From: Candidatus Microgenomates bacterium
GTDB taxonomy: Bacteria; Patescibacteriota; Microgenomatia; JACQLA01
Direction: 5' to 3'
Length of the DNA stretch: 59,841 nt
Assembly: GCA_016204255.1 (NCBI GenBank)
Contig: JACQLA010000003.1
Location: 250,088 to 309,928, forward strand
Below are positions 53,381-56,208 of the stretch, in pieces. The number at the start of each line of letters is the position of its first letter. Position 1 is the first letter of the stretch. Under the pieces are notes generated by a model. It made no database searches, was not told where the DNA came from, and worked only from the letters and a program-made list of their open reading frames with translations. Position numbers and translations under genes: made by a program.

Positions 53381-53657
53381 CTCATTCCTCAAAATTGAGC
53401 AATTTTTTTCTTCGACAATCAGGAAGTAGCAGGAAAGTTCCAGATTTTTTAGGAGATTCTGGAGAAACTCCGGTGTTGGTTTCCTCCTCCGACAAAAATC
53501 GGGGGGAACCGTGAATACTCCTAGAAAGGAGGTGATCCATCCTCAGCTTCGGCTAAGGATACCTTGTTACGACTTAGCGCTCATCGCCGACCTTGGCTTA
53601 ACTCCGATTAAATCGGAGCTTCGGCCACTGCCGACTTTGCTCACTTGACGGGCGGTG

Positions 53658-54621
53658 TTCTGAGATAGCGCGTTACAACCATCTAAACGCTTCTCACCCA
53701 CGGAGCACACGGTTTTCCCGTACTCTCGCGGACGGCTATCCAAACATTGGCCTTCTATTATTCATAAATTCCCTGATTTTCAAAAGTTGGTCTATACCTT
53801 TCTCAGTAAGATGGTCTTTTTTCCTGAAAATCTCTGCTGCCTGGCAGAAAAGTTCAAAGTCCTTTCCCTTCTTACCTTTTAAGGGAAATTTCTTAAAGAA
53901 CGGAATAACCTTATGAAGAATATCGCCTTGTTTCCTAACGACAAACTTTACGTGAGGTTTCCATCCATATCTATCATAATTCAGTTCTACTATTCTTCCA
54001 CAGTCAAGCCTTTTTTGAATTAACTCCAAAATTGGTTTATCGTCTGCCCGAAGCTCAATTTCAAAACAAAGATTTGCATCCCTACCTGTTTTCTTTGTTT
54101 TATGCTTCGTTATCAGAATAGCAAAACATCCTTCCCCATCGGTAAAACCAACAATATACCACGGACTTAAAAACTTGTATGCACTCATGTTTGGTTAGCT
54201 TCGATCCTTCACCCCGATTAAATCGGGACTACTATGATCTCTGCAGACTTCCAGTATTTACTCGGTGTCAGTTCACACTGACACTTACTTCCATTGTTGA
54301 TTAACAACAAATAAAAGTCAATACTGGATCTCCCTTTGTAGCCATATTTTCCATCTATTATCATCTTGAGCCCAATTACCTAATTAGCTGTATTTAGTAA
54401 ATGGCTTCCCTATTTGTACGAAAGGTCGCCAACTGATTAGGCCGTCTCGACTTCAAGCTAATAACTGTTACTTTAGCCCTTCTCGCTCCAACATTACTGC
54501 AGGAGGATGCTATTTCGCTTTAAGAGCGTTACTTACTCTTAGAAGGATTTCCCGCTTCGACTTCGTCGAAGACGAGGCGAGTCACCTTCTGGAAAAAATG
54601 GCCGAAAGGCGCAATTTATTT
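53658..54621 (-). mobile_element. Group II-like intron (964 nt) at about E. coli 16S position 1396, with a LAGLIDADG ORF in domain IV
   Basis: Splits CTTGTACA|CACCGCC. TTGCGCC near the 5' end; GAAGTCTGCAGAGATCATAGTAG..GAAGGATCGAA domain III-like motif; CGC-triad domain V-like hairpin; domain VI-like stem with a bulged A. Confidence 0.8.
53736..54188 (-). CDS. Single-motif LAGLIDADG homing endonuclease
   Basis: WYIVGFTDGEGCF motif; VIPFFKKFPLKGKKGKDFELF tail. Confidence 0.95.
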   Translation of the reverse strand: MSAYKFLSPWYIVGFTDGEGCFAILITKHKTKKTGRDANLCFEIELRADDKPILELIQKRLDCGRIVELNYDRYGWKPHVKFVVRKQGDILHKVIPFFKKFPLKGKKGKDFELFCQAAEIFRKKDHLTEKGIDQLLKIREFMNNRRPMFG

Positions 54622-56208
54622 TGTACAAGACCCGAGAACGTATTCACCGCGGCCTGCTGATCCGCGATTACTAGCAATTCCGCGTTCATGGGGGCGGGTT
54701 TCAGCCCCCAATTCCAACTGAGGCGAAATTTTAGAGATTAGCATACCGTTGCCGGTTAGCCACTCGTTGTTATTCGCCATTGTAGTGTGTGTGTAGCCCA
54801 GGGCATAAGGGACGTGCTGACTTGACGTCGTCCCCGCCTTCCTCCCCCGATTTAATCGGGGGCAGTTCCCTTTGAAAAAATTTAACAAAGGGTGAGGGTT
54901 GCGCTCGTTATGGCACTTAAGCCTACACCTCACGGTACGAGCTGACGACAGCCATGCATCACCTGTTCTACCTTCCTTGCGGATCGTCCCGCTTTTCGGC
55001 GGAACTAAAACGGTAAAATGTCAAGCCCTGGTGAGGTTCTTCGCTTCGTCTCGAATTGAACCACACGCTCCACTGCTTGTGCGGGTCCCCGTCAATTCCT
55101 TTGAGTTTTAGCCTTGCGGCCGTACTCCCCAGGCGGCTCGCTTAACGGGTTACCTTACGACACTCAAGTAAACTCGAGTATCTAGCGAGCATCGTTTACG
55201 GCTAGGACTACGCAGGTCTCTAATCTGCTTCGCTACCCTAGCTTTCGTGCCTCAGCGTCAAAATTTGGCTAGAGGTCTGCCTTCGCTTTTGGTGTTCTTT
55301 CCGATATCAACGCATTTCACTGCTACACCGGAAATTCCAACCTCTCCACCAATTTTCAAGTCAGACAGTATCACACCCTTTTCTCTGATTAAGTCGGAGT
55401 CTTTAAGGTATGACTTACCTGACCGCCTACGCACTCTTTACGCCCAGTAAATCCGGATAATGCTTGCACCCTACGTATTACCGAGGCTTCTGGCACGTAG
55501 TTAGCAGGTGCTTATTCATCCCGACATACGTCGGAATAAAAGAGGTTTACAACCCGAAGGCCTTCATCCCTCACGCGGCGTCGCTGCGTCAGGCTTTCGC
55601 CCATTGCGCAATATTCCCGGTTGCTGCCACCCGTAGGTGTATGGACCGTATCTCAGTTCCATTCTGGGGGGTCGTGCTCTCACACCCCCTACCCGTCATA
55701 GGTTTGGTGAGCTATTACCTCACCAACTGCCTGATAGGACGCAGGCCACTCCCGAGGTGGGAAGTTAAGCCCTTTACTCCCCCGATTAAATCGGAGGAGA
55801 CCATGAGGGATTACCCCGTCTTTCGACGAGCTATACCTCTCCTCGGGGCATGTTCCTACGCGTTACTCAGCCGTCTGCCACTGATTTGGCTTGCGCCAAA
55901 CCCGTTCGACTTGCATACCTAAGGCACGCCGCCAGCATTCATCCTGAGCCAGGATCAAACTCTCAAAAAATGCCCGTCTCGACTGTCTTGCAACAGTAAG
56001 ACGAGGCGGATATTCCTGCTACATCCTGACTATCGAAAATTTAAAAAGTGATGTTTGCTTATTAAGTTTTAAAGGTGCTTATGATGCTGGACAAAGAAAA
56101 ACCCCGCCAAGCGGGGCCTTATTTCGTTATCCACTTGGGCAAAAATCACATCATCATAAATTTAAAATTCTTTTCTGCGCCAATTAAAAACCAACGCATT
56201 GCATATAT

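Follow-up and report, generated by a model that had tools for sequence, protein, structure and literature searches.

The DNA analysed here, called the window, is a stretch of 59,841 nucleotides from a Candidatus Microgenomates bacterium (contig JACQLA010000003.1, positions 250,088 to 309,928 of the forward strand). It belongs to an assembly of 711,806 bp with 41% GC in 8 contigs, 81% complete, which is referred to as G000. Our subject is a small palindromic hairpin, the 13-mer CCGATTWAATCGG, or CCGATT(T/A)AATCGG, which closes helices of the 16S rRNA and recurs elsewhere in the genome; we call it the tip. Rfam searches of the window give a minus-strand gene for bacterial 16S rRNA and two tRNAs; the model for domains D1-D4 of a group II intron matches 54204-54287. 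The real end of the 16S 3' exon lies at about 53527 (…GGAUCACCUCCUU). Because the gene is on the minus strand, the four exact copies of the window correspond to the apices of h44, h40 and h9 and to a hairpin of the intron (Table 1), with RNA-sense loops UUUAA in h44, in the intron and in h9, and UUAAA in h40. The helix names h40, h44 and, in 23S rRNA, H25 are those that we presume from flanking conserved sequence and from the maps of the Escherichia coli molecules. A preliminary description of this DNA had seen the same hairpin on several 16S helices, in the intron, in a tRNA-like region and in a repetitive extragenic palindromic (REP) element. This is amply borne out, since the pattern CCGATNNNATCGG has six matches in the window where 0.08 would be expected, a number reached in none of 100 shuffles. 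The variants listed at that time fare unequally: the tip on h17 and the hairpin of the 16S trailer do belong here, whereas 55383-99 aligns, in Rfam, with the universal GCUCAAC loop of h21, of which it is the homologue, and holds no copy of the tip.

Table 1. The 16S rRNA gene of the window, its tips, and related hairpins in and around it (positions are those of the window; G027 is a relative of the same class).
Feature	Position	Strand	Basis or remark
16S rRNA gene bearing the tips	53527..55970	-	Rfam; interrupted by an intron of ~975 nt
Tip, apex of 16S h9	55782..55794	-	RNA CUCCU-CCGAUUUAAUCGG-GGGAG; Rfam SSU model 181-200
Tip, apex of 16S h40	54847..54859	-	RNA CUGCCC-CCGAUUAAAUCGG-GGGAGGAAGG; between ACUGCC and GGAGGAAGG
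Tip, apex of 16S h44, 3' exon	53604..53616	-	Relatives have hairpins of equal length with other tips
Tip on a hairpin of the 16S intron	54214..54226	-	Last hairpin of Rfam group-II-D1D4-1
Shortened 16S h17 with the variant tip CCGAC-GUAU-GUCGG	55521..55534	-	Sequence and Rfam alignment; exact 13-mer on h17 in G027
CCGA..UCGG-type hairpin in the 3' trailer, just past the mature 16S end	53486..53506	-	Exact 13-mer at the equivalent place in G027
Loop variant CCGATTTCATCGG, flanked by two tRNA-like sequences	51210..51222		Pattern match
SRM repeat GTCATTTCGAG-[tip]-CGAGAAATCTAGCGAAGCG	39541..39591	-	Apex 39564-39576 is the loop variant CCGATCTGATCGG

The intron (~53660-54633, ~975 nt) interrupts the 16S gene near the region of the decoding centre. 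It matches the Rfam model group-II-D1D4-1 at 53.5 bits, yet it holds a LAGLIDADG open reading frame (ORF) and no reverse transcriptase. This ORF, at 53736-54188 on the minus strand, codes for a single-motif LAGLIDADG protein of 150 amino acids. Related introns are found in G033, G024 and G036, with other sequences on the hairpin that bears the tip here. Judged by these sequences, the intron tip appears to follow the host rather than the lineage of the intron, which supports an effect of the host.

Across the 0.71-Mb genome there are 16 copies of CCGATT(T/A)AATCGG, where an estimate from base composition predicts about 0.02. The looser pattern CCGATNNNATCGG has 26 sites, 16 of them with a TWA loop, against one for a reversed-pattern control; it is the commonest non-homopolymer hairpin with 5 bp and 3 nt in the genome, and no other non-trivial tip recurs likewise. 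The general CCGA stem is only about threefold enriched, and the loop TTWAA occupies 16 of the 35 CCGA-N5-TCGG sites. With zero, one and two mismatches, the sites number 16, 10 and 33, against 1, 4 and 27 in the reversed control, without any excess at two mismatches; the one-mismatch variants mostly change the loop only. The lack of a tail of decayed copies implies that the copies are recent or actively homogenized. When the flanks of all 16 are aligned, no consensus extends past the C and G that sit beside the 13-mer. Fifteen of the 16 copies are non-coding, the sole coding one being a chance match within a conserved ADLIGF motif.

Half of the copies (8 of 16) fall within the stable-RNA genes, which make up about 4.5 kb: three in 16S rRNA, one in its intron, two in 23S rRNA, one on P8 of RNase P RNA and one on P2 of a SAM riboswitch. 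In 23S rRNA, of which only the 5' half is assembled, so that the 23S tip counts of G000 refer to that half, the tips stand at H25 and at position 1238, and position 294 bears a UUUUA variant. RNase P RNA has the tip on P8; its P18 bears a UUUUA variant, and a 20-nt hairpin, CCGAUUUAUCGG, is inserted in it. The SAM-I riboswitch, upstream of metK, has the tip on a P2 of 37 nt, against 11 in the Rfam model. The other copies belong to REP apices, to two hairpins resembling terminators, and to a few intergenic places. The RNase P RNA (C2:11158-11651) has 494 nt, against about 260-445 nt in relatives; it scores 60.7 bits, under the Rfam gathering threshold of 100, it contains four CCGA..UCGG hairpins, and P8 and P18, which normally interact, both bear the house tip. 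As for the rRNA genes, 16S and 23S are unlinked: tRNAs follow 16S (window 51236-51884), the 5' half of 23S opens contig C4 (C4:1-1406), and the assembly lacks the 3' half.

A hairpin found on so many helices might simply be a good cap. C(UUCG)G and GNRA caps, 4-6 nt long, universal and exceptionally stable, recur on the helices of rRNA and RNase P RNA, and recurrent tetraloop caps are classical in rRNA. The likeness is that the same cap sits on non-homologous helices of both kinds of molecules, and the tip might then be a thermodynamically optimal minimal cap. In the candidate phyla radiation (CPR), a survey of rRNAs describes shortened helix tips, in a text where the words 'hairpin' and 'palindrom' do not occur (PMC9297842), and such shortened helices need new caps. 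However, the 13-mer has a predicted energy of -3.3 kcal/mol (ViennaRNA), against -6.6 and -7.0 kcal/mol predicted for its UUCG- and GAAA-capped analogues. It ranks 13962 of 20480 among hairpins of the same composition, 68% of those with 5 bp and 3 nt being equally or more stable. Unlike tetraloop caps, it comprises 13-15 nt including the stem and is specific to a lineage, and the stability of a loop would leave the identity of a whole stem of 5-6 bp unexplained. Because the predicted stability is so ordinary, selection for a maximally stable cap fails to account for the sequence, and we find this explanation scarcely credible.

Comparison was made with 40 relatives, each sharing only its class with this genome, from which 21 16S genes, 22 23S genes and 30 RNase P RNAs were aligned; in the statistics, genomes were handled as independent of each other. 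The homologous helices are present in all aligned relatives, usually at a similar length and mostly with other tips (at h9, for example, hairpins of 10-23 nt). At h40, the exact 13-mer is shared with G011. It is likewise shared at H25 with G027, and at P8 with G001 and G016. In all, the exact 13-mer caps at least 12 different helices in 8 genomes. G027 has it also at 23S position 143 and on 16S h17, G016 on another 23S helix, G018 on RNase P P3, on a 23S helix and on the variable arm of tRNA-Leu(UAG), and G035, G034 and G030 on helices of the 3' half of 23S. In the G018 tRNA (locus L102, G018:C9:87540-87840) the long variable arm reads UCCCGAUUAAAUCGGGA, with the same tip. As the helices that are occupied differ from genome to genome, many independent gains, or far more losses, would be needed.

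At the same time, several of these sites have CCGAY…RUCGG stems throughout much of the class, and part of the motif is thus old. Ordinary descent assisted by chance, that is, ancestral CCGA..UCGG hairpins in which an AT-biased drift left the same loop, can call on these stems, common to several families on h9, h40, H25, 23S positions 137 and 1238 and P8, and on the exact 13-mers shared at H25, h40 and P8. It runs against the 16 exact copies facing one control match with no excess at two mismatches, the concentration of TTWAA loops in 16 of 35 sites, the different helices occupied in different genomes, and the significant similarity of tips within genomes described below (p=0.002). As a full account of the tip, it must be considered very unlikely.

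Most caps swap a tip and leave the helix no longer than before. Against the Rfam models, the 20-nt hairpin of RNase P RNA and the long P2 of the SAM riboswitch are insertions, while h40, h44 and H25 have the lengths found in relatives. Several relatives carry inserts of 100-200 nt at H25; here the tip closes an H25 of normal length, and the candidate of an rRNA intervening sequence (an insert of at least ~100 nt at 23S H25/H45, cut out by RNase III) was rejected on that ground. The AGACRGAGUC upstream of both 23S copies was considered as hitch-hiking sequence and rejected as well, because relatives have it at both sites: it is ancestral 23S sequence and gives no evidence for copying. As for closer relatives, metagenome scans using lineage-specific 16S anchors gave no match, and a scan of GTDB species genomes for h40 with the tip returned only G011 and one other metagenome-assembled genome.

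The distribution of the tip among genomes is strongly uneven. In the phylum, 32 of 301 genomes have any copy; there are blooms of 38, 30, 16, 14 and 11 copies, and most genomes have none or one. The stable-RNA genes of about 30 genomes, 119 kb in all, have 20 copies, a density about 80 times that of the remainder of these genomes, and in RNA sense 16 of them read UUUAA and four UUAAA (p=0.012, uncorrected for shared ancestry). In genomes with few copies, these lie in stable-RNA genes or the rRNA operon: four of four in G027, two of two in G016, and the single one of G030. Selection at the RNA level offers an explanation for such features. The hairpin would be the site of a factor conserved in the class and drifting with the lineage (a chaperone, a protective protein, or a modification or processing enzyme), ordinary substitutions would have driven helix tips toward it convergently, and the blooms in DNA would be secondary. 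The 80-fold enrichment, the restriction of low-copy genomes to these genes, to which 14 of the 15 copies of the G022 variant (see below) may be added, and the bias of orientation all fit, as do the absence of decayed copies and the conservation of the outer CCGA/UCGG and of the UWA loop while the inner pairs covary (U-A, C-G, UG/CA). A factor of this kind would nevertheless have to recognize many unrelated surfaces, including an excised intron and a riboswitch, and none was found as a candidate. An exact copy is absent from the majority of genomes in the class, and the same core is found in frame, and nested in itself, in protein genes of G001, as well as at the apex of SRM repeats, which act as single-stranded DNA (ssDNA). 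We see convergence as a serious alternative, possible yet open to considerable doubt.

Within genomes, tips resemble each other. G022 has a tip of its own, CCGAC-N3-6-GUCGG, mostly CCGACG-UUA-CGUCGG, with seven copies in 23S, five in 16S and two in RNase P RNA, which makes 14 of the 15 copies in that genome; G017, G024/G012 and G030 also have variants of their own. When genome labels are shuffled within homologous sites, the mean edit distance between tips at different sites of one genome is 2.99 against 3.61±0.18 (p=0.002), and the same permutation gives 18 close within-genome pairs where 9.7 are expected (p=0.016). Exact caps common to 16S and RNase P RNA occur, among 18 genomes, in this genome only, a result without significance by permutation (p 0.07-0.26). 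Tip changes shared within a genome point to copying, or to a shared reader, rather than to simple inheritance. For the same 13-15-mers to stand at sites that are not homologous, they must have been copied or else have converged under strong selection.

The hairpin is also dispersed outside these positions, in intergenic regions and RNA genes in G000, and in protein genes in G001. Two of the 30 copies of G001 are in RNase P RNA, on P8 and P18 as in G000. Many lie inside ORFs, where they are read as PDLIG, SRLNRD or PIKSG peptides. Compared with the G000 orthologues, they amount to in-frame insertions of 8-28 amino acids (8 in MnmA, 28, from two copies, in PBP2), found also in a PduO-like protein and others (loci L044-L061, with L058 for PBP2, L061 for MnmA and L048 for the PduO-like protein). 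There the palindrome is longer, TTGATC…GATCAA, and copies sit one within the loop of another. In G018, a REP family of five copies is built around the tip.

Comparable behaviours are known. The palindromic elements of Rickettsia, about 100-150 bp long and conserved over their full length, lie in frame in protein genes and in RNA genes. The G001 copies in MnmA, PBP2 and the PduO-like protein behave alike, whereas in G000 the tip stays outside protein genes, save for the chance ADLIGF match. In sponge mitochondria, repetitive hairpin-forming elements (RHE) with helices of 8-18 bp are found in intergenic regions, in variable regions of rnl and rns, and in protein genes; doubling or nesting is frequent among them, and no enzyme that mobilizes them is known (PMC2800124). 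With RHE and, by extension, with double-hairpin elements and the GC clusters of yeast mitochondria, the tip shares its nature of a short hairpin found in spacers, rRNA and protein genes. However, RHE are extra hairpins added in organelle genomes with long spacers, whereas here a unit of 13-15 nt mostly swaps an existing tip at constant length and is concentrated in bacterial stable-RNA genes, with RNase P RNA, a riboswitch and an intron besides. Mobile, neutral, selfish repeats should also leave a spectrum of decayed copies, which is absent. Mitochondrial repetitive hairpin elements and Rickettsia palindromic elements are the nearest analogues, by the likenesses just given. The tip is set apart from them by its tiny unit, by replacement at constant length, by its concentration in bacterial stable RNAs and by its uniformity over several RNA species of one genome. 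Our search of the literature found no description of such a recurrence, and no text that pairs 'palindromic element' with Patescibacteria.

The DNA repeats that bear the tip raise the question of an agent. REP elements that go with RAYT (Y1) transposases are short dispersed bacterial palindromes, a likeness with the tip, with the difference that G000 has no Y1 gene (no match to PF01797 in an assembly that is 81% complete). As Y1 counts in relatives do not track tip counts either, RAYT was rejected as the agent. The REP family of the window, with about 35 genome copies of GTCATTTCGAG..CGAGAAATCTAG, fits, when set against the published NTS/SRM consensus, the SRM signature GTCATT-palindrome-AATCYRG with oriented flanks. 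The NTS/SRM motif, CGTCATTCCCGCGMAVGCGGGAATCYRG, is that of Chenal et al. 2025 (PMC11893778); the associated SsnA is a small GIY-YIG nuclease which binds and cuts ssDNA only, upstream of its repeat, and does not bind RNA (PMC11893778). In G000, PF01541 has ten matches, nine of them of 83-102 amino acids, and putative ssnA-like genes (C5:275035-275262 and C4:53188-53406) are flanked by SRM copies. The SRM apex is variable, from 5 to 30 nt with several modules, the CCGAT tip being present in about five of the ~35 copies. These modules are interchangeable (C2:111556, C5:91332, C5:125254, C5:200747, C5:274913), one of ~30 nt, GCACATTCGTCACGCTCAGTGTAAACTCC, being recurrent, so that the SRM apex looks like a general acceptor site for inserts. 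An SRM with another type of arms (GTCATTGCGA..GAAGCAATC) at C4:53090 has the exact tip; it lies 85 nt from the 102-amino-acid GIY-YIG gene at 53188-53406, and the whole locus (C4:53090-53406) is near a cobalamin riboswitch. In G035, and in G117 and G093 of another class, the tip is at or beside the apex of their own, different SRM repeats. At one G035 locus (L111, G035:C12:31100-31400), a TrmD-like frame stays open through a tip-bearing SRM doublet and, from its sequence, the whole Ssn-related repeat pair appears to be translated.

It had been proposed that the REP system, here SRM repeats with small Ssn-type GIY-YIG nucleases, pastes the cap onto stem-loops; a possible route would be that a hairpin is cut as ssDNA and that its repair is templated from a copy of the repeat. 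There is some ground for the idea. The window REP has the signature, with small GIY-YIG genes among its copies; the tip is at or beside the SRM apex in four genomes (G000, G035, G117, G093) despite differing arms; a tip-bearing SRM stands only 85 nt from a GIY-YIG gene; the genome has ten such genes; and a double hairpin of the tip family stands ahead of a mini GIY-YIG gene in G001. However, SRM arms surround none of the copies in rRNA, RNase P RNA or the intron, nor in any RNA gene, and the 13-mer is but an optional apex of the repeats, whose other apices hold many other modules. In G027 (4/4), G016 (2/2) and, for the variant, G022 (14/15), the copies are in rRNA or RNase P genes. The number of GIY-YIG genes has no clear relation with the number of tips in the 40 relatives. 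SsnA, moreover, is described solely as an ssDNA nuclease that cuts upstream of its repeat. To our knowledge, no copying activity of Ssn has been reported. As the agent, this system is therefore not supported, and it seems improbable to us that it makes the caps.

The account that we favour, without quite calling it probable, combines two levels. The tip of G000 would be this genome's version of a module, CCGA-Y-UWA-R-UCGG, widespread in its class of ultra-small, CPR-type bacteria, made uniform by copying of DNA and filtered by selection on RNA. In all the stable RNAs examined (h9, h40 and h44 of 16S, H25 and two more helices of 23S, P8 and P18 of RNase P RNA, P2 of the SAM riboswitch, and the 16S intron), the module would close helix tips that are exposed and free to vary; it would also close the apex of some Ssn-related repeats and terminator-like hairpins. 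In a first step, it would be copied at the level of DNA from one hairpin apex to another, possibly by short-patch conversion or by template switching during replication between hairpins that share a CCCG/CGGG stem; in some lineages it might be inserted outright. In a second step, selection on the RNA would set where copies last: on helix tips that tolerate them, with a preference for the orientation UUUAA. Template switching has been described as creating or repairing perfect hairpins in RNA genes, rRNA genes among them, in one step (Monttinen and Loytynoja, 10.1101/2021.04.15.439925). The likeness lies in perfectly complementary stems, the tip being a perfect 6-1-6 palindrome, but the events described copy the local opposite arm, which leaves unexplained how distant loci come to share a sequence.

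Several observations lean toward copying of DNA: a spread that takes in protein genes as well as DNA repeats, the nesting, the patchy blooms, the perfect palindromy, the absence of decayed copies and the host-specific tip of the intron. Others, which are the concentration in stable RNAs, the restriction of low-copy genomes, the covarying inner pairs and the bias of orientation, lean toward selection on RNA. From the recurrence of the tip, its roughly 80-fold enrichment in stable-RNA genes, the similarity within genomes, the differing helices, the insertions in relatives and the ordinary stability, we infer a copying step and an agent for it. To be sure, there is another side. No copying enzyme and no copying event were caught, with relatives at the class level only. 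In h40, h44 and H25 the length has stayed the same, and with CCGA/UCGG stems so widespread in the class, a few substitutions could yield the tip; the sole flank identity between two copies is ancestral 23S sequence. Sharing of 5-bp stems between 16S and RNase P RNA, compared within and between genomes, is not significant (p ~0.09), because CCCGA/CCGAY stems are class-wide. The low-copy restriction and the 16:4 orientation fit selection on RNA at least as well as copying, and some caps that are shared with other families (23S H25, 16S h40, RNase P P8) may be inherited. All this weighs against the two-level account. The original argument for copying rather than descent must be restricted accordingly. 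It keeps its force from the other tips of most relatives, from the occupation of at least 12 helices in 8 genomes, from the within-genome similarity (p=0.002) and from the insertions of G001; it loses it for the H25, h40 and P8 caps, which may be inherited, and in that most caps brought no lengthening.

A broader generalization may be put forward, although only tentatively, since we rather doubt that it holds as a whole: the apices of non-homologous helices in CPR RNAs and DNA repeats might evolve in concert, through a copied palindromic tip module of 13-25 nt. Such a module, addressed by the secondary structure of the DNA and having neither flanks nor its own enzyme, would count as a minimal mobile unit; it would span rRNAs, RNase P RNA, the variable arms of tRNAs, riboswitches, introns and DNA repeats. 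It would thereby rewrite variable regions in essential RNAs, with a spill into protein genes in some lineages. If homogenization of tips within genomes is real, sites in the variable regions of 16S and 23S rRNA do not evolve independently in these bacteria, which would affect rRNA phylogeny, the design of probes and primers, and the inference of structure from covariation for a large uncultured radiation. There would exist either a process of DNA copying addressed by structure or a factor that reads one hairpin on many RNAs, and either would be new biology for CPR. The preferred tip of each genome also makes a simple genomic marker that can be searched for in other lineages.

Finally, some copies of the tip are part of a longer element, TATAATCG-stem-GAAAAC-[tip]-GATGAA-stem, present twice in G000 (C2:~20700-20790 and C5:~62970-63050) and once in G001 (G001:C1:~9600-9700, L043 ~2110-2200), with no match in Rfam. 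A shared neighbour gene, which would have suggested an autoregulated binding protein, was considered and rejected, as the neighbours are unrelated (HU, a helix-turn-helix protein and a SpoIID-like protein). The element may be a promoter-bearing repeat or a small RNA.

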